Shown piece after piece: positions 11-58,284 of a stretch of DNA of 64,000 nt. The position numbers and the translations under genes are program-made. Source of the stretch: Candidatus Microgenomates bacterium (GTDB lineage Bacteria; Patescibacteriota; JACPGU01). Each line of letters begins with the position of its first letter. Position 1 is the stretch's first letter. The notes beneath the pieces are model-generated. The model made no database searches, was not told the DNA's origin, and was given only the letters and a program-made list of their open reading frames with translations. Location of the stretch: NCBI GenBank assembly GCA_016188915.1, contig JACPGU010000001.1, positions 34,111-98,110 of the forward strand, read 5' to 3'.

Positions 11-2767
11 GTGGACATCGCCTCTATTATCTTTGACATTGTGCGTCTATTGCTTTATGCCCTGATTATCGCTGGGTGGTTTTGGGGTTTTTTGCTATTG
101 GCTAATGCTTACAAAAAAAGACGCAAAAGATTTTGGTTAGTCAAACAAGAATATACTACTTTGTTGGTCCAAGTACCGCGCAATAATGAAAAAGGCCCAT
201 TGTCTGCTCAATTGATGTTTGCTTCTATTCACGGTATTTATAAATCGGCCAAAGAGAGACTATCCGAAGGATCTTTTCAAGAGCACATCAGCTTTGAGAT
301 AGTTTCAATGAGCAAATATATTAAATTTTATGTCTATGTGCCGACCCATCTGAAAGATTTCATAGAGGGCCAGATTTACTCTCAATACCCGACCGTGGAA
401 ATGCGCGAAGTAGATGATTATACCTTGGCTAGGAGATCAGAGGGAATGCATTTTGTCGGCACCGAATTGGCTCTGGTCAAAAATGATTACTATCCTATCA
501 AGACCTTTGTTAATTTTGAAGTAGATCCGCTAGCTGGGATTACCGGCGTTTTGTCGCAAGTAGAAGAAGATGAGCAGATTTGGGCGCAATTTTTGGTAAG
601 ACCATTGGATGATAGTTGGCAGAGGAAGGCGATCTCTTATGTTTCAGATTTGAGAGCAGGTAAAAAATCTTCTTTCGCCGGCAAAGGAGTAGGGGGAATT
701 TTTAGTTTTTTGGGTTTGGTTTTAAAGGCTTTGAGCGCGCCACCAGAACAGGGGACAGCGGCCAAACCAGTCAAATTAGCCGGACCGGTAGAGCAGGCCG
801 TCAAGGCGATTGAGGACAAATCCACCAAACTGGGCTATGAAGTAAAAATCCGTCTAGCTTTTTTGTCGGACAAAGATCCAGAATCGATGAAGATCAAAAT
901 TCAATCTATCGTGGGCGCTTTCAAACAATACAATTCTTCCAATCTTAATGGTTTTGCTCACAAGAGTACCCATATGGACGATTTTGATTTTATGAACAAA
1001 TTACAGACACGCAGTTTTGAGGAGCCAGGCTTTGTTTTGAATATTGAAGAATTAGCTTCTTTGTACCATTTGCCAACGGCAACCGTTGAGACACCGAGTA
1101 TCGTCTGGGCGGGAGCTAAAAAAGGCGAACCACCGGCAATTTTGCCACTAGAAGGAGTAGTGCCGTCAGATCAATTAACTGCCTTTGCTCAAACTAATTT
1201 TCGCAATAAGGTGGCTAATTTTGGTATCAAATTAGACGATCGTCGCCGTCATATGTATATCATTGGACAAACCGGTACAGGTAAATCCAATATGATGAAA
1301 AGCATGGTCTTGGACGACATCAGAGAGGGGAGGGGATTGGCGGTTATTGATCCGCATGGCGAATTCATTGATACGGCGTTAGACTATATTCCGGAAAATC
1401 GTATTAAAGACGTAGTGGTGATTAACCCGGGCGATAGAGAATACAGCGTTGGTTTTAATTTGTTGGAAAATATCGATCCGGACAGAAGGGAGATTTTAGC
1501 GTCCGGAATGATGTCTATTTTTAAAAAAATCTGGGAAAATGTCTGGTCGGCCAGGATGGAATATATTATGAAAAATATCCTCCTCGCGCTTTTGGAAACG
1601 CCGGGTTCTACTTTGCTTGGCGCGACTAAAATGTTGGTCAATGCCGAATATCGCAGAATGATCGTGGACAATATCACCGACCCTGTAGTGAAAGAATTTT
1701 GGATCGCCGAATTTGAGAATCAGCTGAAAACCAATCCCAAATTTGCCACTGAGGCGGTGGCGCCGATCCAGAACAAAATCGGTCAATTCATCGCCGTACC
1801 CTCTATCCGCAATATCATTGGTCAGCCCAAAAGCACGATTGATATTAAAGAGATTATGGATAACAAAAAAATCCTTTTGGTCAAAATTTCCAAAGGCGAG
1901 ATCGGCGATGACAATATGGCGCTTTTGGGAGCAATGTTGATCACCAAAATACAGCTAACAGCGATGGAAAGATCAGGGACGAGAGAAGAAGAGATGCAAG
2001 ATTTTTATCTCTATGTTGATGAATTCCAAAATTTTGCCACCAGCTCTTTCGCCACTATTTTGTCTGAAGCGAGAAAATACAAATTGAACCTGATTATCGC
2101 CCACCAGTATATCGCTCAAATGACGCAGGAGGTTAGAGACGCGGTGATAGGCAATGCCGGCACAGTGGTGGCTTTTCGTGTCGGTCCGGACGACGCGCCT
2201 ATTTTGAAAAAAGTTTTTGAGCCAGTTTTTGACGAAAACGACCTTTTGAATTTGAGCAATTTTCATATTTATATCAAATTGATGATTGACAATACGGTCA
2301 ATCCGGCTTTTTCAGCTATTACCTTACCCTATACGCGCAATCAAAAGCCCGAGGGTAATCGACAGGCTATTCTAGAGCGCTCCCGCCATAATTTTGCGAT
2401 TAATAGGGGAGTGGTAGAGCAAGCGATTCTGACTTGGAGCCAGCAGATGGCAGAGTTGGAAGAAAGCGCGAAAAAATTAGGTAAAAAAGGTAAAAAAGAA
2501 AATAGGGAAGAGGGAGAAACAAAAATAATCGGCGACATAGCTTATCGTGAGATTAAAGACAAAAAAGGCGGTATCTGGTATGTTAGAAAAGATAAAATTG
2601 GTGATAACGCGAATACGGAAGAGGGGAGTAGGGGGCACGAGGGTATTCGTGATATAAAAATAGCAGAGAATGAAATCGCGGAAGATATGATTTTAACAAA
2701 AAGCGATGGCAGCAATAACAGGGTAGGGGAGGAGGCTTTGACGCCCGGGCAGACGGTGGAATTGTAA
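11..2767 (+). CDS. Membrane-anchored P-loop ATPase of the VirB4/TraG (T4SS) - HerA/DUF87 superfamily, paralog 1. The N-terminus may be truncated by the window edge or start at GTG 11.
   Basis: 918-aa ORF with an N-terminal hydrophobic segment. Walker A is IIGQTGTGKSNMM followed by VIDPHGE; Walker B-like is LYVDEFQNF, then ARKYKLNLIIAHQ. Homologous to ORF 6307..8814 (shared ELAS(L/I)(Y/F)H(L/F)P...TPSIVW block). Confidence 0.6.
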   Translation: MDIASIIFDIVRLLLYALIIAGWFWGFLLLANAYKKRRKRFWLVKQEYTTLLVQVPRNNEKGPLSAQLMFASIHGIYKSAKERLSEGSFQEHISFEIVSMSKYIKFYVYVPTHLKDFIEGQIYSQYPTVEMREVDDYTLARRSEGMHFVGTELALVKNDYYPIKTFVNFEVDPLAGITGVLSQVEEDEQIWAQFLVRPLDDSWQRKAISYVSDLRAGKKSSFAGKGVGGIFSFLGLVLKALSAPPEQGTAAKPVKLAGPVEQAVKAIEDKSTKLGYEVKIRLAFLSDKDPESMKIKIQSIVGAFKQYNSSNLNGFAHKSTHMDDFDFMNKLQTRSFEEPGFVLNIEELASLYHLPTATVETPSIVWAGAKKGEPPAILPLEGVVPSDQLTAFAQTNFRNKVANFGIKLDDRRRHMYIIGQTGTGKSNMMKSMVLDDIREGRGLAVIDPHGEFIDTALDYIPENRIKDVVVINPGDREYSVGFNLLENIDPDRREILASGMMSIFKKIWENVWSARMEYIMKNILLALLETPGSTLLGATKMLVNAEYRRMIVDNITDPVVKEFWIAEFENQLKTNPKFATEAVAPIQNKIGQFIAVPSIRNIIGQPKSTIDIKEIMDNKKILLVKISKGEIGDDNMALLGAMLITKIQLTAMERSGTREEEMQDFYLYVDEFQNFATSSFATILSEARKYKLNLIIAHQYIAQMTQEVRDAVIGNAGTVVAFRVGPDDAPILKKVFEPVFDENDLLNLSNFHIYIKLMIDNTVNPAFSAITLPYTRNQKPEGNRQAILERSRHNFAINRGVVEQAILTWSQQMAELEESAKKLGKKGKKENREEGETKIIGDIAYREIKDKKGGIWYVRKDKIGDNANTEEGSRGHEGIRDIKIAENEIAEDMILTKSDGSNNRVGEEALTPGQTVEL

Positions 2768-2841
2768 GTCTATAAAGTGCTGTAAAGCGTTTGTGTACGC
2801 ACCTAAAAAATTGGTGAAATAAAAAGAAAAGGAGAAGAGTC

Positions 2842-2955
2842 GATGAAATGGATCATTGGAGGAATTATTATTCTTGCAGTGCTTGCAGTGCTTGCAGTGG
2901 GCATTATCTGGGCAATTAGTAAAATAGTCTGCGAAATGGCCGGTTGCAACGACTG
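2842..2955 (+). CDS. Tiny hydrophobic membrane peptide (37 aa) MKWIIGGIIILAVLAVLAVGIIWAISKIVCEMAGCND.
   Basis: Strong RBS (aaaggagaag, 7 nt upstream of ATG). Single TM helix with a (cttgcagtg)x3 tandem nucleotide repeat; C-terminal CxxxxC. Sits immediately 3' of ATPase paralog 1. Confidence 0.35.
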
Positions 2956-2980
2956 AATAAAAAAGGAGGGAGAAGATTGT

Positions 2981-3103
2981 GATGAATATAGTTTTATCGT
3001 CGGTCTTAGTGGTTGTGCTTCTCTTTTTTTCTCTGGAGAATAATGGCGTGATTTTTCGCTTTCCAAAATCTATACGACCTATAAGTCACGGCCGTGAGTT
3101 ATA
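2981..3103 (+). CDS. Tiny hydrophobic peptide (40 aa) MNIVLSSVLVVVLLFFSLENNG...; the 3' end runs into palindrome A.
   Basis: RBS aaaaaggaggga upstream of ATG 2981 (alternative GTG 2978). Hydrophobic N-terminal helix. Confidence 0.3.
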
Positions 3104-3112
3104 GGTCGTATA
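3071..3112. promoter_or_regulatory. 42-bp near-perfect palindrome TATACGACCTATAAGTCACG-GC-CGTGAGTTATAGGTCGTATA (palindrome A), operator-like.
   Basis: Read directly from the sequence. The arm CGTGAGTTATAGGT is shared with the palindrome at 14669..14698. Confidence 0.5.
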
Positions 3113-3282
3113 CAAAAGGAATGCCTGTGTCGATTGACTGGGCATTTTTTGTTTGAGAAAGGTGGTGGTTGTCATGTCGGTTTTTACTTTCGGCAACATT
3201 GTGATATAATTTTGAACAGGTTCTAGGGGAGTCTGCCCCTTAACTTGTTGGAAACCGAAAACGAAAAAAAGGAGAGACAGCC

Positions 3283-3762
3283 GTGGCGAAAATCCTTCGT
3301 GTTACAGGATTCTTTTTTCAGAAAGGAATAAGGCTTGGCTTTGGGTTTGACGATGATGGAGAAAGGATCCCAGGTGTGGTGGCGTTGATAACCGCCACGG
3401 AATTTTTAGGCGCAATTTATATTTCCGAAGAGGAAGCAGGAGGAGATTTGTTTGACATCTTGGAGCATGGCAGGGGTCGCAATGAGCCCGGCGTTGATGC
3501 TTCTAGCCTTTCGGAGATTAAACTGACGGACGAGGAGTTCTCCTTCGTCAAGACATATAAAGACGGAAAGCCCCCGGTTCAGTACTCTTACCGCAAACAC
3601 CCAGACAGCAATGACAAGGTCAGTCCCTGGAAAGGGGAGTGGGTGATAGAAGCCGATGACGAGAGCGGAGAAGAGCGAGGCCCCACCAACTGCATGCTCG
3701 TGGAAATGCCGGAGTGGCTCTACGAGGCGCCAAAAGACTACGACTGGCCGGAGGGCGCATAG
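3283..3762 (+). CDS. Hypothetical acidic protein (159 aa).
   Basis: ORF with RBS aaaaaaaggagagacagcc before a GTG start. Upstream TGaTATAAT extended -10 at ~3199-3207. No recognisable domain. Confidence 0.45.
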   Translation: MAKILRVTGFFFQKGIRLGFGFDDDGERIPGVVALITATEFLGAIYISEEEAGGDLFDILEHGRGRNEPGVDASSLSEIKLTDEEFSFVKTYKDGKPPVQYSYRKHPDSNDKVSPWKGEWVIEADDESGEERGPTNCMLVEMPEWLYEAPKDYDWPEGA

Positions 3763-3798
3763 CAGATCTTTCTTGACTAAACTGAAAGGAGAGAGGGC

Positions 3799-4179
3799 AT
3801 GAAAATAGTTAAGTTTTTCTGGGTGCGATCAATGGCGAATGGGAAGGCGAAGGTATACCCCGCCGATCCAAAAGACTATGGCAAGACTTACCCCAGAACG
3901 GCCGTCGAATTCCGGGGCAAAGAGTCTTTTTTGAATGTTGGTTCTGGGATGAGAAGGATTGTGACAATAGATCACCGCGATAGAATATTTGTCGAAAAAG
4001 ATTCCAGTCCAGGGATCTATGGCAGTTTTGGAGTGATACTGCCAATCAAAAGAGGGTTAACTAAAAGGCAGATTGTCAGTAAAATTCTCAAAAAGTGGGA
4101 AGCCGAGGCCAGGGAAGGCATGGAATACAAAGACGGAGTCATGAGGGAAAGAATTTTCAGGGTGGAGGTGACGCTTTAA
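3799..4179 (+). CDS. Hypothetical protein (126 aa).
   Basis: ORF with RBS aaaggagagagggc before ATG. Followed by a double-hairpin terminator. Confidence 0.5.
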   Translation: MKIVKFFWVRSMANGKAKVYPADPKDYGKTYPRTAVEFRGKESFLNVGSGMRRIVTIDHRDRIFVEKDSSPGIYGSFGVILPIKRGLTKRQIVSKILKKWEAEAREGMEYKDGVMRERIFRVEVTL

Positions 4180-4188
4180 TTTTTCCGT

Positions 4189-4233
4189 CCGGGTTTTGCC
4201 CGGATTAACGGGGCCGCAAGGCCCTTTTGTTTT
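4189..4233 (+). terminator. Rho-independent terminator: two GC hairpins (ccgggttttgcccgg; gggccgcaaggccc) followed by a T-run.
   Basis: Stem-loops followed by TTTTGTTTT. Confidence 0.6.
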
Positions 4234-4585
4234 ACCTCTATTTTTTACCATTAAGCCTAAGCCTGCTTTCGCAAATCCCCAAGAGCAAACTTATAGGAAA
4301 TTTATTCGACCGCTAATTCACGATCGTGAGATAGAGGTCGAAAATAGTAAATACCTATCGAGGAAACGAGGAAGGCAGAACGAACATCGTTTGAGCTTAA
4401 TGTTTTAGCCTGGTAAGTGTAGGGAAGGCCGGGGCTTAGTATATTAAAGGATGCCCAAACGTCAGATATCTTTTAAGGGTAATTGTGAAGATTATCTTTC
4501 TAATCTGGTGTATCAGGTTAGGAATAGGGCTATAAGCCCGTAAAAGGGGATATGCCTTTTTATTTTACCCTGTAAAACCTTGACA

Positions 4586-4600
4586 TTATGCTAAAATATG
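4586..4600 (+). promoter_or_regulatory. Candidate extended -10 promoter (aTGcTAAAATat), adjacent to a TTGACA hexamer.
   Basis: TGnTAAAAT motif. The same tatgctaaaatat string occurs upstream of the small gene at 49312. Confidence 0.25.
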
Positions 4601-4893
4601 TTGCAATATGCAAACCTGTCAATGGCAAATAATGGCTAAATAGAGCCAAAGATAGGAGAGGGGAGGGGGGAAATAAGAAAATAAAAAAATAAGAAATTAA
4701 GAAACTAAATGAGTAGGGAATACGAGGCTAGAGATGTCGCACAAGATACCTTTTGCGACATAGGGTGGGGGCTAAACCTGAAACAGAGCCTTTCTCCTTT
4801 GACTATCATCTCGTTTGTTGTTCAGTAGTGTTTTTTATTCAAGCTCCCCTACCCTATGTCGCAAAAGGTCAATCTGATTGGCGATACGGATCC

Positions 4894-4931
4894 GATGTCC
4901 GACATCTGGGCATCCTTTGATGTCGGACATC
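4894..4931. promoter_or_regulatory. Two copies of the 13-bp palindrome GATGTC(C/G)GACATC separated by 12 bp; operator-like tandem site.
   Basis: Read directly from the sequence; center-to-center spacing is 25 bp. Confidence 0.4.
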
Positions 4932-5103
4932 TTTAAATTCGCCAGTCCCCTACTTTTTATTAATTTATTCGCAAAAATTAGCTTAAATCAGGTATAATTT
5001 ACAATTTCCCATTTAAATGCCCCAGGATGTGTTTTTTGTGTCAAAGTGGGGCAAGACTACCTTTTTTACCCAAAAATAACAGTGGTAGTGGCGTAAAGAC
5101 CTC

Positions 5104-5140
5104 AAAAAACCACCCCTAGATATTTCGGAGTGGTTTTTTG
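5104..5140 (-). terminator. Bidirectional rho-independent terminator (aaaaaaccac...gtggtttttt) ending the minus-strand operon 8814->5193.
   Basis: 9-bp stem with a 17-nt loop, flanked by an A-run and a T-run. Confidence 0.6.
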
Positions 5141-5192
5141 ATACATATCCTTACTTTTTTAATTTTTTACTTTCTTATTTTCTTAGCCAGGG

Positions 5193-5842: not shown

Positions 5843-6226
5843 TTAGGGCGCTGAAGAAAGAATTTTTTTTATAAAACTCATCAAGGCCCAAGAAAAAAAC
5901 GTAAAAAGCCCGCCGACTATGGCTGCGGTCAGGGCTTTTTTGGCTGTTTCTACTTTTTTAGGATCACCGCCAGAAGTAGTGTAAAGAAAACCAGCCACAA
6001 TAATCATTATAGTCATAATAAGGCCGGTTGCCCAAGCGATATAATTGATGCCACGCCGCAAAAAACAGAAGACAAGAGAACGCCCATCAATATTTGGGTC
6101 GGAACAGATATTAGTAATAGTATCCAAATTGTTAGGGTCTGCCTCTTGTGCCAGAACTACCAATGGCAGACTCCAGGTTAGCCAGCCGGCAATTATTGTC
6201 CAAAAATGAGAAATATTTTTTAGCAT
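5843..6226 (-). CDS. VirB2/TrbC-like pilin candidate (signal peptide plus two hydrophobic helices).
   Basis: 127 aa. N-terminal signal-like segment ending ...VVLAQEA. Two TM helices separated by a short GGDPKK loop. Immediately downstream of the VirB4-like ATPase on the same strand. Confidence 0.45.
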   Translation of the reverse strand: MLKNISHFWTIIAGWLTWSLPLVVLAQEADPNNLDTITNICSDPNIDGRSLVFCFLRRGINYIAWATGLIMTIMIIVAGFLYTTSGGDPKKVETAKKALTAAIVGGLFTFFSWALMSFIKKILSSAP

Positions 6227-6306
6227 ATAATCTTTAACTATTAATTTTTATCCGCTCTAACCTTCTCCAATTCCCCACTCTTCACTTTCCACTTTCCACT
6301 AATATA

Positions 6307-8814
6307 TTACGCTCTATCCCGAATCTCTTCTTCCACGATATTACGATCTCGGCCATATTGCAAGCGCGATAAACCGATGATAGCTTCGGCTATTTTGGGA
6401 TTTTTTTCTATTTTAGAAAAATCCAAAAAAGTGTTCAAGGAAAAAGGTCGCAAATTGGTATTGTCTACCAAAAGGCTCAAATAAGCATTACCACTTTCCA
6501 GATTGGCGATGTCATAAGCATTGAAAACAGGTTCGTATTTTTTTTGTAAAAATTCGGCATCTTCTTCTCCTACTCGAAAAGTGATGAAGGTGCCAACGTT
6601 GCCAAAGACAGCGTCTTTTATCTTGGTATCCCCTCCTTTGCTTATCAGTTGATTGATAAATTGATGGCCGATAGTAAGAGCTAGCTGATATTTTCTGGCT
6701 TCAGATAAAATAGAAGCCACGGAATCAGTCGTAAAGTTTTGAAATTCGTCAATATAGAGGTAAAATGGTTTGCGGTTTTGCTCCGGCATATCTACTCTGC
6801 TCATAGCGGCCAGATATATTTTGCTGACCATAATCAGACCCAGAAGATAGGCGTTCATCTCCCCTATTTGGCCTTTGGCGAGTCGTAAAATTAATATTTT
6901 TTGATTATCCATCACCTCGCGCAAATTAAAAGCGCTTTTTTGTTGGGCGATCATCGGACGCATAATATCATTGGCGATAAATTGTGTGAGCTTGGAAGTA
7001 ATATAGGGCACAATATTAGCCAGGGCCGCTTCTCCACCAGCTTTTTCTGCTTCTTTAAGCCAATAATTTTTTATTATTGGATTGGCACAATGCGACAATT
7101 TCATCATCCGAAAATCTTCATCAGACAAAACACGAGGGATCTCCATAATAGTCGAGCCACTTTCGGGGTGCTCCATCACCAGCAAGGCCGCGTTCCTGAA
7201 ATATTGCTCAAACATTGGTCCACCCGTGGAACGCAAATCGTATAATTTATCAAAAACATTCATCAATTCATTCAAGACCAAAGTTTTCTCTTCTGGTCTG
7301 GTATATTCCAGTAAATTTATGCCGATTGGCCTCTCAAAATCGGCTGGATTAAAAAGAATAACATCCCCTACCCTTTCTTTCGGTATGCGTAAAAGAATGT
7401 CATCGGCATCAGTGCCGTGTGGATCTATGTAGCATAGCCCCTGGCCATTTTTTATATCTTGAATGATCATTTCTTTCATCAGAGTTGATTTGCCGCTACC
7501 AGTTTTGCCCACGATATAGGTATGGCGAACACGATCTTTGGGGCGCATATAGACGGGCGTCCTCAATCCGCGATAAATATTGACACCCAGATAAAGACCT
7601 TCTTTCGGTGTCTCCGGCGGAGCCGCTGCTCTTTTGGACAAAAGCCAAACGATAGAGGGTGTATCTGTATAGCGGTTGGGAAAATGGAAAATAGAGGCTA
7701 ATTCTTCGGTATTTAGAATATTTTTCTCCGCCGAATATGGAAAGGCGCGAAAAACGAAATTTTCAGCCACTATTTTGCTAGTTTGTTTTTTATTAGGTGT
7801 AAAAAAATTACCCGAAGGATGGCGGAAAACAGAAAAAGCGCTGACGATATTATTCAAATGCATTTTGGCCAAAGCTTCTTGGTCGGAAGAGACGACAACG
7901 CGGACTAAAGCCTCAAAACCGACAAAGGCGGCTTTTTCGCCAATCATTTTTATTTTTTGTTCAGTAATAGGGGTAATGGTTTTGGTTTTTTCCGCTTCTT
8001 TTTTGGCCACTTCTTCTGTTTTGAAAGGAGCAGCAGCCAATTCACCTCCTAGTTTGCTGGTAGATTCAGCGATTTTAACCCAATCAATTTTTCCTCCGGG
8101 TCCTCCCCTGCCTTCTTGCAGAGAGTGAATATAATGCTCAGAAATCTTCTGCCATTTTGTTTTCGTGGGACGAATCAATATTTGAACGGCTGCCGCTTCT
8201 TCTGGGCCTAGCTTGAACAAAGTATTGGTGATGGTGTTGAGCGGATCGGTCTCAAATTCTTTGTAGGTTTTGATAGGCATAGCTACTGACTGGCCAAGAG
8301 TTAATTCACTGGCGGCATATTTATCGTCATCTTGAAAGATATTATGGCGTTCTGTTTCTTCCAAAACAGCATCAGGGTAAAAGCTATGGATTTGTTTTTC
8401 TACCAAGGTCAATAATTCTTTTGGTAAAGCGATATAGAAAAATATCTCGCCTTTTTGTGAAACTATTTCAAAAGAAATGTGTGGAGATTTTTCGTGCCAC
8501 CAATTTTTTATTTTGGTATCGCAAACGCTGTATAGCGAAGAAAACATTTGACTAGCGCGGGAGAGCAATTCTTTGTGGTCTTTTTTGGATTCTTCTTCCT
8601 CGCGGGAAGATTTTTTAGGTAACATTATTTTAAGCAAAACCATGTCCAGAGCGCGTGGGATTTTTTTGCTTTGATAGCGTAAATAACGATAAGTATTGAT
8701 TAGCAAGATGGCTGTCAGAATTACAATAGTAATAACGACTAGCCAATACAAAAAATAAAGCAAATTGGTGGCAAGATCTGCTCCTTGGTAGATTGAATTG
8801 TCGACGTATTCCAT
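6307..8814 (-). CDS. Membrane-anchored P-loop ATPase of the VirB4/TraG (T4SS) - HerA/DUF87 superfamily, paralog 2.
   Basis: 835 aa. N-terminal TM segment. Walker A is IVGKTGSGKSTLM followed by YIDPHGT; Walker B-like is LYIDEFQNF, then ARKYQLALTIGHQ. Collinear homology to ORF 11..2767. Confidence 0.65.
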   Translation of the reverse strand: MEYVDNSIYQGADLATNLLYFLYWLVVITIVILTAILLINTYRYLRYQSKKIPRALDMVLLKIMLPKKSSREEEESKKDHKELLSRASQMFSSLYSVCDTKIKNWWHEKSPHISFEIVSQKGEIFFYIALPKELLTLVEKQIHSFYPDAVLEETERHNIFQDDDKYAASELTLGQSVAMPIKTYKEFETDPLNTITNTLFKLGPEEAAAVQILIRPTKTKWQKISEHYIHSLQEGRGGPGGKIDWVKIAESTSKLGGELAAAPFKTEEVAKKEAEKTKTITPITEQKIKMIGEKAAFVGFEALVRVVVSSDQEALAKMHLNNIVSAFSVFRHPSGNFFTPNKKQTSKIVAENFVFRAFPYSAEKNILNTEELASIFHFPNRYTDTPSIVWLLSKRAAAPPETPKEGLYLGVNIYRGLRTPVYMRPKDRVRHTYIVGKTGSGKSTLMKEMIIQDIKNGQGLCYIDPHGTDADDILLRIPKERVGDVILFNPADFERPIGINLLEYTRPEEKTLVLNELMNVFDKLYDLRSTGGPMFEQYFRNAALLVMEHPESGSTIMEIPRVLSDEDFRMMKLSHCANPIIKNYWLKEAEKAGGEAALANIVPYITSKLTQFIANDIMRPMIAQQKSAFNLREVMDNQKILILRLAKGQIGEMNAYLLGLIMVSKIYLAAMSRVDMPEQNRKPFYLYIDEFQNFTTDSVASILSEARKYQLALTIGHQFINQLISKGGDTKIKDAVFGNVGTFITFRVGEEDAEFLQKKYEPVFNAYDIANLESGNAYLSLLVDNTNLRPFSLNTFLDFSKIEKNPKIAEAIIGLSRLQYGRDRNIVEEEIRDRA

Positions 8815-14190: not shown

Positions 14191-14586
14191 TTATTCCGTC
14201 GTTTTGCCATCAAAATGTTCTTCATTGGTCATCGCGTCTACTTTGGTCGGGTGGATAGTGCCGTCTTTATGCTCGGCGGGAGAATAAATGGTGTAGAGCT
14301 TCAATTCCACATCATTTGAGGTATTGACGATATTGTGTTTGACGCCTTCGGGGATAACGACCGCCGAGCCGTCGGTCAGCGGATGTTCCACATCGTTTAG
14401 CACCGCCTTCCCCTCCCCCGCTTCCACGCGGATGAATTGGTCGAGCGTATGTACCTCCTCCCCGATCTCCTCCCCCACTTTGAGCGACATCACGACCAGC
14501 TGACTATGGGGCGCGGTGTATAGCACTTTCCGAAAATTCTCATTGGCCAACGACTCTTTTTCAATATTGACTACATATCCTTTCAT
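14191..14586 (-). CDS. Cupin domain protein.
   Basis: Cupin_2-like G(x)5HxH...E...H pattern (GEEIGEEVHTLDQFIRVEAGEG...VVIPEGVKHNI). Confidence 0.65.
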   Translation of the reverse strand: MKGYVVNIEKESLANENFRKVLYTAPHSQLVVMSLKVGEEIGEEVHTLDQFIRVEAGEGKAVLNDVEHPLTDGSAVVIPEGVKHNIVNTSNDVELKLYTIYSPAEHKDGTIHPTKVDAMTNEEHFDGKTTE

Positions 14587-14668
14587 AATGAATTTTTAAT
14601 GATAAACATAATCCAATTATAGCATATACTTTTCTAATTTCTAAGACGATGTCATCTTAAGACACATG

Positions 14669-14698
14669 ACCTATAACTCACGACCGTGAGTTATAGGT
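14669..14698. promoter_or_regulatory. Palindrome B: ACCTATAACTCACG-AC-CGTGAGTTATAGGT, about 80 nt upstream of the cupin gene start. Same family as palindrome A.
   Basis: Perfect 14-bp arms; shares CGTGAGTTATAGGT with 3071..3112. Confidence 0.5.
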
Positions 14699-14756
14699 TA
14701 TGTGAGATGCTAAGAGCAGCTAGTTTGAGCAAGGAACTCCTTTTCGCCAAACAAAA

Positions 14757-14805: not shown

Positions 14806-15393
14806 TCAACTCTCCAATGCTTCCTCCCACCCTTTGATGATTTCTTCCAAGAGAGGCCTCACTTTCTCGCATTTCAGAGCTTCTTGGAATATCTTGATGG
14901 CGTCAGAGTCTCCCTCACGCACCAGATCCTTCAGGATATCAATGGCGTGGCGGTTCCCCTCTCTCACCAGATCCTTCAAGATCTTGATGGCATCATGGTC
15001 TCCCTCACGCATCAGATCCTTCAGGATATCAATGGCGTGGCGGTTCCCCTCTCTCACCAGATCCTGCAAGACCTTAGCGGCGATGAAGTTCCCCTCATTC
15101 ACCAGATCCTTCAAGATCTTGATGGCATCATGGTCTCCCTCACGCACCAGATCCTTCAGGATCTCGATGGCGCTGGAGTATCCATCATGCACCAGATCCT
15201 TCAGGTTATCAATGGCGTGAGGGTCTCCTGTCCGCACCAAGCTCTTCAAGACCCCGGTGGCGCGGAGGTCTTCTTTGCGCACTTGTTTTACCAGGTCCGC
15301 TATTTCTATTTCTTCTTCCCTCCTCTTGGATGCAAAACGTTCGAGAAGGGCATCAAGCCGTTCTTGTAAAGCCACCAGCAGTTCATTTGACAT
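14806..15393 (-). CDS. Tandem-repeat alpha-helical protein: about 8 copies of the 15-aa unit AI(D/K)ILKDLVREG(D/N)(H/R)(H/D), giving a 45/90-nt DNA period.
   Basis: G-rich RBS (aagggggggggaaagactg) before ATG 15393; terminator downstream. The antisense ORF 14686..15369 is also open but lacks start signals. Confidence 0.55.
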   Translation of the reverse strand: MSNELLVALQERLDALLERFASKRREEEIEIADLVKQVRKEDLRATGVLKSLVRTGDPHAIDNLKDLVHDGYSSAIEILKDLVREGDHDAIKILKDLVNEGNFIAAKVLQDLVREGNRHAIDILKDLMREGDHDAIKILKDLVREGNRHAIDILKDLVREGDSDAIKIFQEALKCEKVRPLLEEIIKGWEEALES

Positions 15394-15528
15394 CAGTCTT
15401 TCCCCCCCCCTTAGCCCTTTTATCAAGGAACAGTATTTCCCGATAATATATCGAGATATTGGCATTATGCTAAAAAACCCTAATATTAGCAAATAGTTAT
15501 GTTGTTTCTTGACCTATAGAAACTACTC

Positions 15529-23013: not shown

Positions 23014-23018
23014 ATTAT

Positions 23019-23080
23019 ACTTCACCAAGGTGGCACTTTAGGAAGATCTACTTCACCAAGGTGGCACTTTAGGAAGATCT
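23019..23080. repeat. Perfect tandem duplication of the 31-bp unit ACTTCACCAAGGTGGCACTTTAGGAAGATCT.
   Basis: Two identical adjacent copies between the OmdA stop codon and the convergent terminator. Confidence 0.8.
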
Positions 23081-23091
23081 AATGGAGCAAA

Positions 23092-34750: not shown

Positions 34751-34892
34751 GTGGGATAGTGGATAGTGGATAGTGGATAGTGAATAGACTTACTTTGACA
34801 GAATGATGATATTATACCATTTTTCTCGGGCAAAACAAAAAACCCGCTGGTGAGGCGGGCGAACGCGGAATGAGAACCCGTAAAGGGTGGGT

Positions 34893-38258: not shown

Positions 38259-39716
38259 TTATTTCTTTATCTTTTTATTTTTCCTATAATCTTCTTCTTC
38301 GGCCTTTCTTTCTTCTACCATATTGAAAACTCGTTCTGTTAATTCCTTTAGTTCTACGGTTTCTTGAATGCCATCACGCATATCACGAACCAGAGCTACA
38401 TTTGTCACGGCTTCTCTCTGTCCGATGATAACAGAAAAAAGAGCGTTTACTTTGTCGGCTGCTTTCATTTGCGCCTTGATTGTATCTTTGCCTACAGCCA
38501 TACCGACGGAAATACCTATCTTCCGCAGATTTTTTACTATTTGCAAAGCTATTTTTTTTGATTCTTCTCCCAGGTGAATAACATAGACATTGATTTTGGA
38601 TTTGGGCTTGGGAACTCTGATATTTTCTGTTTTGAGGTGTTCCACAATCCTGTCTATCCCCAGACCAAAACCGATAGCTGGAGTCATCTCGCCGCCCAAT
38701 TCTTCCACGAGACAGTCATAGCGTCCTCCCCCGCCCAAAGCGTTTTGTCTTTTGGTGTCATTCTTGGTGATTATTTCAAAAACTGTGCGATTATAATAAT
38801 CAAATCCACGGACGAGATTGGGAGCCAAATTATATGGCACACCCATCTCGTCTAGATATTCTAAGACAGACATAAAGTGTCCTTTGCAGTCTTCGCAAAT
38901 ATTTTCTATCATCAAAGGTGCGACTGCGATTAGTGCTTGGCATTTTTCATTTTTACAATCCAGAATACGCAAAGGATTTTTTTTCAATCTTTTTTTGCAA
39001 TCATCACAAAGTTTGCTCTCTTTTTTCTTAAAAAAATCTGTCAATATTTTTTTTATTCTTGGCCGACAGACAGAACAACCCATAGAATTAATGTTTATCT
39101 CGGCGCTGGTTATTCTCATATCTGTTAGCATTTGCCACGACACGCCGATAGTGTTGGCATCAATGGTAGGATCTGATTCTCCGAATATTTCTACCGAACA
39201 TTGCGTAAATTCGCGGAAACGTCCAGATTGAGGATTCTCGTGGCGAAAACAACGACCGATAGTGTAGAGAGAAACTGGCTTGGGCCAAACCTGCATGCCA
39301 TTTTCAATATAGGCTCGTACTATGCCAGCGGTTAATTCTGGTCGTAGAGCCAATTGAGACTGCTCTTCTTTGTCTTTTTTTCCACTTGTTCCCTTGTTTT
39401 TGCTACCATCAAAAACATACATTTCCTTGCTGACGACATCGGTTTCTTCGCCAACGCTACGCAGGAAAAGATCGGATTTTTCCAGCATAGGGACCTCTAT
39501 TTTTTCCAGCCCCGCTCCCTGGGCTACTGATTCAATAACGCTTATCGCGAAATCCCAGTAATGACTGTCTTCTGGTAAGATATCGCGAAATCCCTTGAGG
39601 CGGTTTATTGGTTGCATTTTAGGCATAAAAATATAACGGCAAATAGTAAATTTGGAGGCAATAAAAACAAACCTCTTCTTACTATTATACCGCACTCTGT
39701 CAAGAGCGAGTGGCAT
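38259..39716 (-). CDS. hisS: Histidyl-tRNA synthetase with a Cys-rich (zinc-ribbon-like) insertion; the start is probably an internal ATG (~39633).
   Basis: Class II motifs (RPELTAGIVRAY; FRHENPQSGRFREF; GGGRYD); anticodon-binding C-terminal domain. Confidence 0.8.
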   Translation of the reverse strand: MPLALDRVRYNSKKRFVFIASKFTICRYIFMPKMQPINRLKGFRDILPEDSHYWDFAISVIESVAQGAGLEKIEVPMLEKSDLFLRSVGEETDVVSKEMYVFDGSKNKGTSGKKDKEEQSQLALRPELTAGIVRAYIENGMQVWPKPVSLYTIGRCFRHENPQSGRFREFTQCSVEIFGESDPTIDANTIGVSWQMLTDMRITSAEININSMGCSVCRPRIKKILTDFFKKKESKLCDDCKKRLKKNPLRILDCKNEKCQALIAVAPLMIENICEDCKGHFMSVLEYLDEMGVPYNLAPNLVRGFDYYNRTVFEIITKNDTKRQNALGGGGRYDCLVEELGGEMTPAIGFGLGIDRIVEHLKTENIRVPKPKSKINVYVIHLGEESKKIALQIVKNLRKIGISVGMAVGKDTIKAQMKAADKVNALFSVIIGQREAVTNVALVRDMRDGIQETVELKELTERVFNMVEERKAEEEDYRKNKKIKK

Positions 39717-42213
39717 CCATTTTATTTCTGAGAATTTTTTTCTTTTCTAGGTTTAGACTGTCAGTTTTTGCATCTATTATGATATGATCACCAGAAATAA
39801 AGCGATCACCAATCAATTCTTCGGCTAATTTGTTTTCTATCTCTGCTTCTATCAAGCGACGGATCGGACGAGCGCCGTATTCCGGGTCAAATCCCCGATC
39901 AGCCAGCCATTTTTTAGCTTTGGCGGTGAATTCTAGGACAATACCTTTTTCCAGCAGGACTCTTTCCGCTAAAGTTTTCAGATTGATATTAACGATTTTG
40001 CCGATAGCAATACTATCTAATGGGCGAAAAACAACTATTTTGTCTACGCGATTGAGAAACTCCGGACTGAAATATTTTTTACTATCTGTCAAAACTTTGT
40101 TTTTCATTTGCTCGTAATCGCTCTCGGCCAAAGTTTTTTCTCGAGTTGTTTTGGCGGAAAATCCCATTGTAGCGGAACGGGACAAATCGGCCATTCCCAG
40201 GTTAGAAGTCATAATAATAATGGTGTTTTTGAAATCCACCTTGCGTCCTTTGGCATCAGTCAAATACCCATCTTCCAAAACTTGCAAAAGCATATTGAAA
40301 ACTTCGGGATGAGCTTTTTCTATTTCGTCAAACAGAACTACTGAATACGGTTTCTTACGGACTGCTTCGGTCAGTTTGCCCCCGTCGTCATAACCGACGT
40401 AACCTGCCGGTGCGCCGACAAGACGGCTGACATTATGTCGTTCCATGAATTCCGACATATCTATTTTGATTAGAGCATCCTCCCTCTCGTAAACTTCTTG
40501 AGCGAGGACTTTGGCTAATTCTGTTTTTCCCACTCCGGTTGGTCCTAGGAAAATAAAAGAACCGATTGGCCTGACGGGATTGCCCACGCCAGATCTACTT
40601 CTCCTGATAGCTCGGGCGATATTGATAATGGCTTCCTCTTGTCCGACGATTCGGCTCCCAAGAGTTTTTTCCAAAAAACTGAATTTATGGATTTCGGAAG
40701 AGATTAATTTGGTGATAGGGATACTGGTCCAATTACTGACTACGCGAGCGATGTCTTCCGTAGTAACTCGCGCTCTTTTTTCAGTTGGAATATCTTGTTT
40801 TTCCAAACGTAAGCGATCTAGCTCTTCTTTCAAAAATAATTCTTGGTCGCGTAACTGGGCGGCCATTTCAAAGGCTTGATCGGAAATAGCTTTATTTTTG
40901 CCCTTGATAGTTTCGACCAATCTGATCTCTAATTTTTTGACATCTTCGCTCTCCCCTACTTTTTCACGGATAACAACGGCTGAGCAGGCCTCATCCAGCA
41001 AATCAATAGCTTTGTCTGGCAGAAATCTATCGGCGATGTAGCGATGAGCAAGTTTGGCCGCAATCAAAAGAGCCTCTTCCTCTACCTTCACTTGGTGAAA
41101 ATCTTCATAGCGCGGAGCAATGCCTCGTAGAATAGCCACTGTTTCTTCCTGGCTTGGCTCTTCTACCAAAATGGGCTGAAAGCGTCTCTCAAAAGCGGCG
41201 TCTTTTTCAATATATTTACGATATTCATTGATGGTAGTGGCTCCGATACAGGATATTTTGCCACGAGAAAGAGCCGGTTTTAGCATATTACTAGCATCCA
41301 TTGACCCTTCTGCCGCGCCTGCTCCGACGATGGTATGCAATTCGTCAATAAAAAGAATAATGTTTTTGTCTTTTTCTACCTCGGCCAGCAACTTTTTTAT
41401 TCTTTCCTCAAATTCACCCCTAAATTTCGTGCCGGCGACCATGGCGCCCAGGTCGATAGAATAAATTTTTTTACCTTTTAGTTTGATCGGCACCTCCCCG
41501 AAAGCTATTTTGGCGGCCAATCCTTCTACAATGGCGGTTTTGCCTACGCCCGGATCGCCGATTAGAACAGGGTTGTTTTTAGTTTTGCGCGTTAAAATAT
41601 GAGTTAGGCGCGATATTTCTTTTTCACGACCGATGGTGGGATCGAGTTTTGTACCCTCGGCCTCTGCTGTCAAATCAATAGCATAAGCGTTCAACATAGA
41701 ATTAGTTTTATTTTTGACAGTACGGCCGGCAGTTACCTCTTGCTCTTTTGGTTTTTCAGGCATTTGCGCGGTGGACATAACAAAGATATGTTCAATTTGC
41801 TGAATAATGGTGGCTGGATTAACATCAATATTCTGGATTAAAGCGTAGGCTCTGAAATCAGAATTAGACAAAATACCAAAAAGCAGATGTTCACTGCCAA
41901 CATAAAAATGCTCATTTTGTCGCGCTACAACGATGGCTTTTTCTAGAGCTTGCCTCAAATCATGAGAAAGCCCGTTTTTCTGTAAATCCATTGAGCCATG
42001 CCACATCAAATTCATGGCAATTTCTATTCTTTCAAAATCTATTCCAAAACTAGATAATATTTCGTAGGCCACACCAATTTTTTCCGCTAAAATAGCGAGT
42101 AATACATGCTCGGTGCTGACAGCGCCAGAATTCATATCTTGAGCAATAGTCTGCGAAAGACTCAAAATTTTTTTAGCGTTGTAGGTGAAACGGTCAAAGC
42201 CAAATTCATTCAT
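39700..42213 (-). CDS. clpC: ATP-dependent Clp chaperone ClpC (two AAA+ modules, Clp_N repeats).
   Basis: Two Walker A sites ([13 protein letters not shown]; [12 protein letters not shown]); N-terminal Clp repeats; 837 aa. Confidence 0.85.
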
Positions 42214-42216
42214 GGC

Positions 42217-42248
42217 GAGTATTAAGTATTATGTATTAAGTATTGAGC
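42217..42248 (-). promoter_or_regulatory. TTAATAC heptad array immediately 5' of the clpC start codon.
   Basis: Minus strand reads CTCAATACTTAATACATAATACTTAATACTCGCC-ATG. Confidence 0.45.
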
Positions 42249-45437: not shown

Positions 45438-45450
45438 GGGTTTGGGTTAG

Positions 45451-45472
45451 TATTAAGTATTAAGTATTAAGA
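45451..45472 (-). promoter_or_regulatory. TTAATAC heptad array (x3) 5' of the nusA start codon.
   Basis: Minus strand reads CTTAATACTTAATACTTAATACTAACCCAAACCC-ATG. Confidence 0.45.
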
Positions 45473-47731: not shown

Positions 47732-49102
47732 TTAAACGCTTTTACCGACGATCTCTTTCAGTGTTTTTGTCTCAATGACTTTTGCCTTGCTTTTAATACT
47801 GACACTCTTCGCCATTCTTGGCAAGACGATAGTTTGAAATCCCAAACGAGTCGCCTCTTCAATTCTTTTCTCTAGATTTGGCACCGAACGCACTTCGCCA
47901 GACAATCCCAGTTCCCCAAAAATAGCGGTCTTACTGTCCAACGCTTTATTTTTCACTGCTGAAATTATTGCTAGTGCCACCGCCAGATCCACTGCGTTTT
48001 CCCGCACCTTGATCCCGCCAACGATATTCAAATAAACATCATGGGTGGACAAATCTACCCCCGCTCTTTTTTCGATAATCGCGATCAGGAGATTCAAGCG
48101 GTTCAAGTCATATCCCGAGGCTGTTCTTTTGGGATAACCGAAATAACTTTTGGCCGCCAAAGCTTGAATCTCTACGAGAAAAGGTCGATTGCCCTCAACT
48201 ATCGCCGATACCGCTACGCCAGAGGCGCCCTCCAGCCTTTCCTCCAAGAAAACTTTGGAAGGATTGGCCACCTCCACCATTCCCTCTTGCTCCATCTCAA
48301 ATATTCCCACTTCGGAAGTTTTGCCAAATCTATTTTTTATCCCTCGTAAGATGCGAAAAGATTGATAACGGTCGCCTTCCAAATACAAGACAACATCGAC
48401 CAAATGTTCCAAAGTTTTTGGTCCCGCGATTCCCCCGTCTTTGGTTACGTGGCCGATAATAAAAATGGGCGTATTGGTCGTTTTGGCGATTCTCATCAGA
48501 TTTTCTGTCGCATTTTTCACCTGCGCGATAGAACCGGAAGCGGAAGCGATATTGGCCGAATAGACCGTTTGAATAGAATCCACAATGACCAGATTGGGCT
48601 TTTCTGTCTCTATCGTGGCCACAATATTTCCCAAATCGTTTTCAGAAAGCAAGAAAATTTTCTCCTCTTTGATCTTCAATCTTTCCGCTCGCAGTTTTAT
48701 CTGTTGCGCCGATTCTTCCCCGGAAATATAGAGAATTTTTTCAATATCTTTATTTTTGGAAATGCCGACCAAAGATTGTAAGAGTAGGGTTGATTTGCCG
48801 ATCCCCGGATCGCCTCCGAGCAGGACGAGCGATCCTAGCACCACTCCCCCGCCGAGGACGCGATCGAATTCACCGATATTGGTTTTTATCCTCTCAAAAT
48901 TCTTGCTATCTACTTTGTCCAGAGAAATAAGTGGCGAAGCCCTACCTCCACTTTCCACTTTCCACTTTCCACTTTTCCCTGTCGCGACAACAGGAACTTC
49001 CTGCAAGGAATCCCAGTTTTGGCAAGCTCCACATTTCCCCTGCCATCGGACATACTCCGCCCCGCAGGAATTACAGACAAATTTTGAACTAGCCTTTGGC
49101 AT
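47732..49102 (-). CDS. radA: DNA repair protein RadA/Sms.
   Basis: N-terminal CxxC-x-CxxC zinc ribbon, Walker A GDPGIGKSTLLLQ, KNRFG motif, Lon-like C-terminal domain. Confidence 0.9.
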   Translation of the reverse strand: MPKASSKFVCNSCGAEYVRWQGKCGACQNWDSLQEVPVVATGKSGKWKVESGGRASPLISLDKVDSKNFERIKTNIGEFDRVLGGGVVLGSLVLLGGDPGIGKSTLLLQSLVGISKNKDIEKILYISGEESAQQIKLRAERLKIKEEKIFLLSENDLGNIVATIETEKPNLVIVDSIQTVYSANIASASGSIAQVKNATENLMRIAKTTNTPIFIIGHVTKDGGIAGPKTLEHLVDVVLYLEGDRYQSFRILRGIKNRFGKTSEVGIFEMEQEGMVEVANPSKVFLEERLEGASGVAVSAIVEGNRPFLVEIQALAAKSYFGYPKRTASGYDLNRLNLLIAIIEKRAGVDLSTHDVYLNIVGGIKVRENAVDLAVALAIISAVKNKALDSKTAIFGELGLSGEVRSVPNLEKRIEEATRLGFQTIVLPRMAKSVSIKSKAKVIETKTLKEIVGKSV

Positions 49103-49311: not shown

Positions 49312-49533
49312 TTGGAGGTAGCAATTATGGAAGAAGTCGCAGCAGTAGGAGATGTTTCTGGCGATCCGGCAAAAATAGTCGCGATCGCTAACCGCTTGTA
49401 TGGAAAAATTGTACCAAAGGGCAAGATTGGCCCTCAAAAAAAGAAATTGCTGGAACAAGAAGGGTTCCTCGAAGAAGACCCAAATGGCTTAAGGCTCACT
49501 GAAAAAGCTTTGAAAGCAATTCAAAAAAATTAA
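49312..49533 (+). CDS. Small hypothetical protein (73 aa).
   Basis: SD ggagg 8 nt upstream; extended -10 tgctaaaat upstream; terminator downstream. Confidence 0.5.
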   Translation: MEVAIMEEVAAVGDVSGDPAKIVAIANRLYGKIVPKGKIGPQKKKLLEQEGFLEEDPNGLRLTEKALKAIQKN

Positions 49534-49690: not shown

Positions 49691-49722
49691 ATACCTAATA
49701 CCTAATACTTAATACCAACTCC
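49691..49722 (+). promoter_or_regulatory. TTAATAC-type heptad array ending ...TTAATACCAACTCC immediately before ATG 49723.
   Basis: ATACCTAATACCTAATACTTAATACCAACTCC-ATGG; near-identical to the context at rpmF (58252..58284). Confidence 0.45.
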
Positions 49723-58214: not shown

Positions 58215-58251
58215 TTTACAAAAATAGCTTTTTGTTCTATACTCAATACGT

Positions 58252-58284
58252 TATACTTAATACTTAATACTTAATACCAATTCA
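58252..58284 (+). promoter_or_regulatory. TTAATAC heptad array (x4) ending ...TTAATACCAATTCA immediately before the rpmF ATG.
   Basis: TTATACTTAATACTTAATACTTAATACCAATTCA-ATGG. Confidence 0.45.

Follow-up and report, generated by a model that had tools for sequence, protein, structure and literature searches.

Small proteins such as KdpF, AcrZ and CydX are encoded at the ends of membrane-complex operons and are often missed by annotation, and type I toxins are small proteins with a single transmembrane (TM) helix and a charged tail. The 64-kb stretch of DNA analysed here (the window), from a metagenome-assembled genome of Candidatus Microgenomates (Patescibacteria), contains the gene of an ATPase that resembles the coupling proteins of type IV secretion systems (T4SSs) and, after it, two short open reading frames (ORFs) for hydrophobic peptides, pep1 and pep2. 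Like KdpF, AcrZ and CydX, pep1 is shorter than 50 residues, has one predicted TM helix and its own Shine-Dalgarno (SD) sequence, lies at an operon end and was overlooked by annotation; unlike them, conserved as they are with their partners across genera, it has no homologue and is not found alongside orthologues of the ATPase. Both peptides share with type I toxins (Fst/Ldr, TisB, Hok-like) a small hydrophobic single-helix build, a polar or charged tail and a highly structured mRNA, and differ from them in having neither a family match nor a detected antisense promoter and in being placed within an operon's 3' end instead of at a self-standing locus. The small T4SS components of Patescibacteria (VirB2-like PF18895/PF04956, VirB3/PrgI) are likewise hydrophobic and found near T4SS-family ATPases, yet they are about three times as long as pep1 and pep2 (VirB2-like pilins have about 100 residues, with a signal peptide and two TM helices), whereas each of the two peptides has a single TM segment and none of the family profiles recognizes it. 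A survey of Patescibacteria T4SSs lists VirB2-like pilins, VirB3/PrgI, VirB6 and TrsD as accessory components and nothing resembling pep1, with about two homologues of the type IV coupling protein (T4CP) per genome, mostly unlinked to virB4 (PMC12102498).

The explanation that we favour, with a probability of about one half, is that pep1 would be a young, lineage-specific single-pass membrane protein made from the ATPase mRNA, and pep2 an accidental frame created by a CU-rich tract and a palindrome of the repetitive extragenic palindromic (REP) kind.

The ATPase transcript and pep1

The ATPase gene, whose product is named by NCBI a type IV secretion system DNA-binding domain-containing protein of Candidatus Microgenomates, is followed by a spacer of 515 bp (2768–3282) in which pep1 and pep2 both lie on the ATPase strand. 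The features that bear on pep1 and on its transcript are:

11–2767, plus strand: ATPase paralog 1, T4SS coupling-protein-like, 918 residues, with Pfam DUF8128, TrwB_AAD_bind, DUF87 and TraG-D_C and an N-terminal TM segment
2830–2834, plus strand: SD sequence AGGAG of pep1, 8 nt ahead of the ATG
2843–2956, plus strand: ORF of pep1, 37 residues, ATG 2843 to TGA 2956, product MKWIIGGIIILAVLAVLAVGIIWAISKIVCEMAGCND
2873–2899, plus strand: perfect tandem repeat (CTTGCAGTG) x3 found by repeat search, in frame, giving LAV-LAV-LAV in the TM segment of pep1
3120–3154, plus strand: intrinsic-terminator-like hairpin AATGCCTGTGTC-GATT-GACTGGGCATT (3120–3146) and U-run TTTTTTGTTT, from fold and sequence
3183–3210, plus strand: promoter-like site TTTACT-16-TATAAT with TG (extended −10) for the next, separate unit, from a consensus promoter scan

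All features that an earlier, sequence-only reading had described in this region are present, with coordinates that agree to within 1 nt, including a 37-residue peptide encoded in part by a perfect threefold repeat and AGGAG-type SD sequences ahead of both peptides (2830–2834 and 2964–2969).

pep1 combines the attributes expected of a small gene, namely an SD sequence at 5–10 nt, a start codon and coding-type codon statistics. Its product has one predicted TM helix (approximately residues 4–26) and a short tail with a CxxxxC motif. With a codon log-odds score trained on the long ORFs of the window against their other five frames, pep1 reaches 0.114, which places it in the top 3.7% of 377 small ORFs and at the 24th percentile among 38-codon pieces of real genes; an antisense ORF of 87 residues (2803–3066) scores as non-coding. 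Moreover, the codons of pep1 show an RNY-like (purine-any base-pyrimidine) periodicity, with purines at 82% of first and T at 49% of second codon positions, and the frame was called by the gene caller in a Logan assembly. Taken together, these statistics suggest that pep1 is probably a real, unannotated, lineage-specific small membrane protein.

An arrangement of this kind is rare by chance: among 5000 composition-matched shuffles of 2768–3282, 0.16% contain any SD-led ORF of at least 30 residues with a TM-like segment, and none contains two or more. When AGGAG or GGAGG followed 4–11 nt on by a start codon and at least 20 open codons was listed over the whole window, pep1 and pep2 were the only small ORFs with a strongly hydrophobic segment, most other sites with such a motif and start falling at the starts of long ORFs or within them. 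The claim that SD sequences are otherwise rare here is roughly right, a GGAG-type core at −6 to −18 being found in about 14 of 64 long ORFs; it does not extend to the next two genes (3283 and 3799), which also have AGGAG.

The position of pep1 on the same strand, the gap of 75 nt from the ATPase stop and the lack of any detected terminator-like site in that gap make co-transcription with the ATPase likely. Downstream, a GC-containing hairpin directly before a U-run, as in intrinsic terminators, begins nine bases past the palindrome into which pep2 runs (P1, below), and is likely to form the end of the ATPase–pep1(–pep2) transcript; the palindrome itself is followed by CAAAAGG and does not have the form of a terminator. 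With no terminator before pep1 and one past P1, the simplest transcript is thus ATPase–pep1–(pep2)–palindrome–terminator. The proposal that small membrane peptides are co-transcribed with the ATPase is accordingly reasonable for pep1, in view of its SD, ATG, periodicity, coding score and the terminator layout, and weaker for pep2, part of which is supplied by a dispersed palindrome.

The window has only two ATPase paralogs, the second at 6307–8814 on the minus strand. Two ORFs of similar length proved to be something else: a supposed 835-residue paralog (55707–58214) is leucyl-tRNA synthetase by its sequence motifs, and the 837-residue ORF at 39700–42213, in the size class of ATPase paralog 2, is a ClpB/ClpC-type AAA+ chaperone by Pfam.

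pep2, a CU-rich tract and a palindrome family

The second frame depends on the following elements, of which the palindromes have no assigned strand:

2964–2969, plus strand: SD sequence AGGAGG of pep2, 9 nt from GTG 2979 and 12 nt from ATG 2982
2979–3104, plus strand: ORF of pep2, 41 residues from GTG 2979 or 40 from ATG 2982, with a TAG stop at 3102–3104
3018–3033, plus strand: CU-rich tract CTTCTCTTTTTTTCTC, with complementarity to three SD regions, those of pep1, of pep2 and of the gene at 3283 (inverted repeats I2, I5, I6 and I8)
3071–3112 (42 bp): palindrome P1, with 21-nt arms, no spacer and 20 of 21 positions complementary (one mismatch), from an inverted-repeat search
4305–4342: palindrome P2, related to P1 by sequence comparison
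14663–14704: palindrome P3, the third family member by sequence comparison, in another intergenic region

The length of 40 residues given earlier for this peptide corresponds to the ATG start. Its SD sits in a purine-rich stretch of 21 nt (2956–2976) that is 81% identical to the one ahead of pep1 (2818–2838), its hydrophobic core LLFFSL is spelled by the CU-rich tract, and its last 11 sense codons and stop fall within P1. The coding score of pep2, 0.021, is ambiguous, in the top 16% of the 377 small ORFs and at the 6th percentile of 38-codon real-gene pieces; the frame is T-rich at all codon positions, with no purine bias at position 1, was called by no gene caller (Logan or NCBI annotation) and found no candidate homologue among 5.8 billion proteins. 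Since the frame runs into a repeated palindrome, other copies of which 'encode' the same tail in tblastn, pep2 is a doubtful gene, with a hydrophobic N-terminus derived from a T/CT-rich tract and a tail derived from the palindrome.

The complementarity of the CU-rich tract to the SD regions also bears on whether anything in the spacer is translated. If neither ORF were, the spacer would be a structured 3' untranslated region in which purine-rich 'SD-like' tracts pair with the CU tract ahead of a stabilising REP-like hairpin and a terminator, with the peptides as T-rich by-products. The minimum-energy fold of 2768–3160 indeed pairs 2826–2839 with 3018–3031, and the region folds far better than its shuffles (z = −5.9), although this z-score is mostly due to the palindrome and the terminator; the T-rich composition and poor coding score of pep2, the lack of conservation or homologues of either peptide and the empty annotation of the NCBI pipeline (PGAP) fit the same picture. 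Such a region would not be expected to show the codon periodicity of pep1 nor to rank so high in coding score, and the coincidence of SD, 8-nt spacing, ATG and a 37-codon frame would have to be fortuitous. We regard an entirely untranslated spacer as rather unlikely, while allowing it real weight.

As described earlier, pep2 reads into a 42-bp palindrome; this palindrome has one mismatch and is one of three copies in the window, the other two having been found through a tblastn match of the pep2 tail. P1, P2 and P3 are 38–42 bp long, all intergenic, and share the core GACC-TATAA-N-TCACG-NN-CGTGA-N-TTATA-GGTC (GACCTATAA-N-TCACG-NN-CGTGA-N-TTATAGGTC), for which shuffles gave 0 matches. The outer arm bases differ among the three, yet each copy remains self-complementary, which argues for selection on symmetry or structure. 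No match to the family was found in about 770 kb of related Patescibacteria loci or in viral contigs. As several related, imperfect palindromes of 20–45 nt in intergenic regions, the three copies have the character of REP elements, which they also resemble in being dispersed near gene 3' ends with co-varying arms; they differ in that only three copies of the family are seen, in 64 kb. No transposase family was recognized among ten window proteins scanned, no search having been aimed at REP-associated tyrosine transposases (RAYTs). We read P1–P3 as a genome-specific REP-like element into which pep2 simply runs. P1 precedes a terminator and P2 and P3 sit 45–80 nt past one; as two copies thus follow rather than precede terminators, a role at the DNA level, such as protein binding, is equally possible for the family. 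P3 also stands upstream of a cupin gene (14191–14586), about 18 nt ahead of a −35-like box of that gene.

The variable slot, its dif-like border and other features of the window

Beyond the spacer, the interval after ATPase paralog 1 contains two more genes and ends at a conserved site; its counterpart in the nearest relative, locus L007 (ATPase 71% identical), contains four strongly SD-led mini-ORFs followed by a terminator:

3283–4179, plus strand: two SD-led genes without homologues (ORFans), of 159 residues (3283–3762) and 126 residues (3799–4179), filling the remainder of the slot
4734–4761, no strand assigned: dif-like 28-mer ATGTCGCACAA-GATACC-TTTTGCGACAT, the right-hand border of the slot, from GC skew and the switch in gene strand
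L007, 6849–6972, 6986–7159, 7179–7367 and 7448–7524: mini-ORFs of 41, 57, 62 and 25 residues, three of them hydrophobic with a TM segment

The ATPase has thousands of relatives, the nearest 61–73% identical; about 85 ATPase loci were fetched, with about 70 orthologous or paralogous ones (45–73% identity) entering the small-ORF count. Synteny is kept in the nearest relatives on both sides, with SecD-SecF-DUF1290-sigma70-ATPase1 upstream and a convergent block of a 180-residue gene, a pilin and ATPase2 beyond. Between these blocks the content differs from one relative to the next (a GHMP-kinase-like gene, a HAD hydrolase, a DAHP-synthase-like gene, a 104-residue ORF or nothing), and among orthologues the dif-like site lies between 221 nt (L012) and 2897 nt (L006) past the ATPase1 stop, at 1969 nt in the window itself. 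Together with the two ORFans, pep1 and pep2 thus occupy a hypervariable, terminus-proximal, fast-turnover slot between the ATPase gene, the last one conserved on its replichore, and the dif-like site, which is why nothing in it is conserved in relatives. Conservation of the reading frames in related genomes, whose absence the sequence-only reading would have counted against the peptides, was indeed not found; because the whole segment is absent there, this shows lineage specificity, not non-coding status.

Homology searches are in keeping with such turnover. tblastn of pep1, pep2 and the two neighbouring ORFans in the 85 or so ATPase loci returned no homologue, and the 159-residue neighbour is without homologues altogether. 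A search of 1.84 billion representative proteins gave no true homologue of pep1, which matched only itself and one junk repeat protein. In Pfam, PHROGs, NCBIfam and PADLOC nothing fell below E = 0.08 for the peptides, and weak matches to AimP and DUF6251 were dismissed as noise. The 159- and 126-residue neighbours were tried as anchors for locating the cassette elsewhere, but are themselves ORFans and lack viral relatives. Homology of pep1 to L007 mini-ORFs A and C was also considered: it gave p of about 0.003–0.004 against residue shuffles that destroy the TM block and are thereby biased, tblastn returned nothing, and it is unproven. Two of the four L007 mini-ORFs are called by gene callers.

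Much the same loci bear on the suggestion that the peptides are membrane accessory subunits of the ATPase or minor pilins. If both were functional, dedicated partners of the ATPase, as accessory subunits or pilin-like parts of a T4SS-like machinery of Patescibacteria, their likely co-transcription with it, its N-terminal TM anchor, the small TM ORFs at the same place in L007 and the T4SS_pilin gene that follows paralog 2 would all be in line. A small TM ORF, however, lies downstream of the ATPase in sense orientation at 10 of 70 loci, against 14 of 70 in antisense and 5 of 70 after shuffling, which is no enrichment; orthologues at 62–70% identity carry other genes or nothing there, and only L007 has analogous small ORFs, so that a subunit conserved with DUF8128/TrwB-type ATPases is not seen. 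Nor do the peptides resemble pilins, VirB3/PrgI or other known parts. The true T4SS_pilin gene of the window (5843–6226, after paralog 2) matches PF18895 at 9e-09, while pep1 and pep2 have no Pfam match at E ≤ 0.1 and fall outside the VirB2-like families (PF18895/PF04956), and an origin of pep1 from the C-terminal helix of that pilin was ruled out, BLASTP being not significant. The N-termini of pep1 (MKWIIGG) and pep2 (MMNIVLSS) have neither the class III leader of type IV (minor) pilins, short, basic and ending in Gly before a hydrophobic helix with Glu at +5, nor the G-F-T-L-I-E pattern of those pilins, and no N_methyl Pfam match was found; a minor pilin is likewise without support from NCBIfam, PHROGs or PADLOC. 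The components surveyed in Patescibacteria are VirB2, VirB3/PrgI, VirB6 and TrsD, and T4CPs are mostly unlinked to virB4 (PMC12102498). Dedicated partnership of both peptides with the ATPase is, on this evidence, very improbable.

The dif sites of Xer recombination have an 11+6+11 layout with partial dyad symmetry, E. coli dif being GGTGCGCATAA-TGTATA-TTATGTTAAAT (PMC3325230, PMC5357621). The 28-mer that ends the slot resembles E. coli dif in both layout and sequence, with two partially symmetric arms of about 11 bp, a 6-bp centre and a terminus position, and is a candidate dif site. Its 24-nt core recurs in 48 distinct loci at ATPase identities down to 45%, mostly 40–600 nt past the ATPase stop and facing a convergent gene (SecF, DUF1290 or the 180-residue gene); over these loci conservation is high in the arms and lower in the 6-bp centre, with the consensus atGTCGCACAA-TATAtc-TTgTGCGACat (for example L012 3201–3228 and L056 7126–7153). 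Strand composition changes near the same point: GC skew in the window stays between +0.11 and +0.26 over the first 5 kb or so and is ≤0 afterwards, left skew exceeds right skew in 29 of 33 loci, and the two FtsK/TraG-family ATPase paralogs (11–2767, plus; 6307–8814, minus) converge on the dif-like site. The window contains one full copy of the 28-mer and no Xer gene among the proteins scanned. Genes of about 300 residues beside the motif in other loci, considered as Xer recombinases, are SecF and those of about 125 residues DUF1290; a resemblance to the NrdR box was considered and dropped, since its spacing differs and the 11+6+11 layout fits better. In the literature searched, neither this dif-like site nor its linkage to the ATPase was found described.

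The slot ends in a non-coding block of about 270 nt (4514–4775) that terminates at the dif-like site and contains a TTGACA promoter-like box (4579–4612) and a purine-rich ATAGGAGAGGGGAGGGGGG tract. In blastn, this block is 77% identical to L007 7546–7814 with no ORF shared, against only 71% identity of the ATPase proteins, and the gene-free gap of about 1 kb around it (4180–5192) has no Rfam match. A 23-nt inverted repeat (CCTTTTGCGACATAGGGTGGGGG at 4749–4771, CCCCTACCCTATGTCGCAAAAGG at 4846–4868, 74 nt apart) duplicates one dif-like arm in inverted orientation, the half dif-arm at 4856–4866 being a possible pseudo-dif half-site, and a further hairpin GATGTCCGACATC...GATGTCGGACATC lies at 4894–4931.

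Proximity to a dif-like site invites the view that a mobile or rapidly evolving insertion lies beside it and that the peptides are its toxin-like products or cargo, either as membrane peptides of type I toxin kind or as genes of a Xer-integrating element with the palindromes as borders. Elements that exploit Xer integrate at dif (PMC5357621), the slot adjoins the dif-like site and varies in every relative, all four of its ORFs have strong SDs, unlike about 78% of window genes, P1 and P2 bracket the ORFan pair (3283–4179), and a half dif-arm copy is present at 4856–4866. The peptides also have the size (<60 residues; here 37 and 40/41), hydrophobicity (maximum over 15–17 residues about 2.8–3.4), single helix and charged tail of type I toxins. 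Against this, neither matches a toxin family in Pfam, NCBIfam or PADLOC, nor any phage or defence family; no promoter-like site was found on the minus strand of 2768–3282 in a consensus-only scan, which is weak evidence against an antisense RNA, and no small-RNA signal in Rfam. The slot contains no integrase and no second full dif-like site, its genes have no viral relatives, its GC content is barely above the window average, and pep1 and pep2 lie outside the P1–P2 bracket. The suggestion of leader or toxin-like peptides made by the sequence-only reading gains neither support nor refutation, and an origin as toxins or as cargo of such an insertion appears unlikely.

Elsewhere in the window, tandem heptamers (AGTATTA, ATACTTA, GGATAGT, TCCACTT, ATACCTA and CCACTTT) occur at 42218–42244, 45449–45471, 58239–58277, 34754–34787, 48947–48975, 49691–49716 and 6275–6300, and L007 has GGATTTA at 6737–6795. 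Several arrays lie directly upstream of start codons (42213, 45437, 34750 and 49723), most genes being without an SD, and the heptamers may represent a feature of 5' leaders or promoters peculiar to this lineage. A 68-residue ORF on the plus strand (49327–49533; MEEVAAVGDVSGDPAKIVAIANRLYGK...), with GGAGG 8 nt ahead of its ATG in an otherwise empty intergenic region, is likely a real small gene. A perfect 31-nt direct tandem repeat (TACTTCACCAAGGTGGCACTTTAGGAAGATC x2.1) occupies the intergenic interval 23018–23081, and a 45/90-nt tandem array of 7–8 units with 72–77% matches (14891–15267), lying within a 228-residue ORF on the minus strand (14806–15492), indicates a repeat-containing protein.

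The place of pep1 in the slot

In the account that we prefer, the 515-bp spacer would be the 3' end of the ATPase transcription unit, and on that mRNA ribosomes would start pep1 from its own SD, its product being inserted with the N-terminal Lys inside and the short Cys-containing tail outside. In-frame slippage of the 9-bp unit may recently have lengthened the TM segment. By analogy with other small membrane proteins of bacteria, pep1 would most likely modulate a larger membrane complex or travel with it as a passenger; the membrane-anchored ATPase encoded upstream would be the obvious candidate partner, a suggestion of pure inference. pep2 would most likely be no maintained gene, its frame having stayed open through the SD-pairing CU-rich tract and ending in the palindrome.

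Several observations weigh against this account. pep1 is left unannotated by PGAP, and the pairing of its SD with the CU-rich tract in the minimum-energy fold means that the purine tracts could be structural rather than ribosome-binding. The only other assembly is identical, and the nearest ATPase orthologues, at most 73% identical and lacking the segment, are too distant for purifying selection to be gauged. A partnership with the ATPase finds no co-occurrence support across the ATPase loci, and the similarity of pep1 to L007 mini-ORFs A and C is what two TM peptides show anyway and establishes no homology.

More broadly, the slot might be a place where new genes arise or settle, in which case pep1, pep2 and the mini-ORFs of L007 would all be very young, arisen de novo or delivered by Xer, expressed by read-through from the ATPase operon and in some cases acting on the two converging FtsK/TraG-family ATPases; as a whole we hold this improbable. 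The position and content of the slot do raise the possibility that insertions exploiting Xer, or genes born locally, may fill it.

In summary, pep1 is a new unannotated small membrane ORFan and as such a fairly ordinary finding; if translated, it adds one more lineage-specific small membrane protein overlooked by annotation in Patescibacteria, useful for annotation and unsurprising. The dif-like site beside coupling-protein-like ATPase genes across Patescibacteria is more notable than the peptides, and the context outweighs them: in these reduced genomes of the candidate phyla radiation (CPR), a short terminus-proximal slot by a conserved dif-like site has its content wholly replaced from one relative to the next and, being filled with SD-led ORFans, lends itself well to studies of how genes are born and lost.

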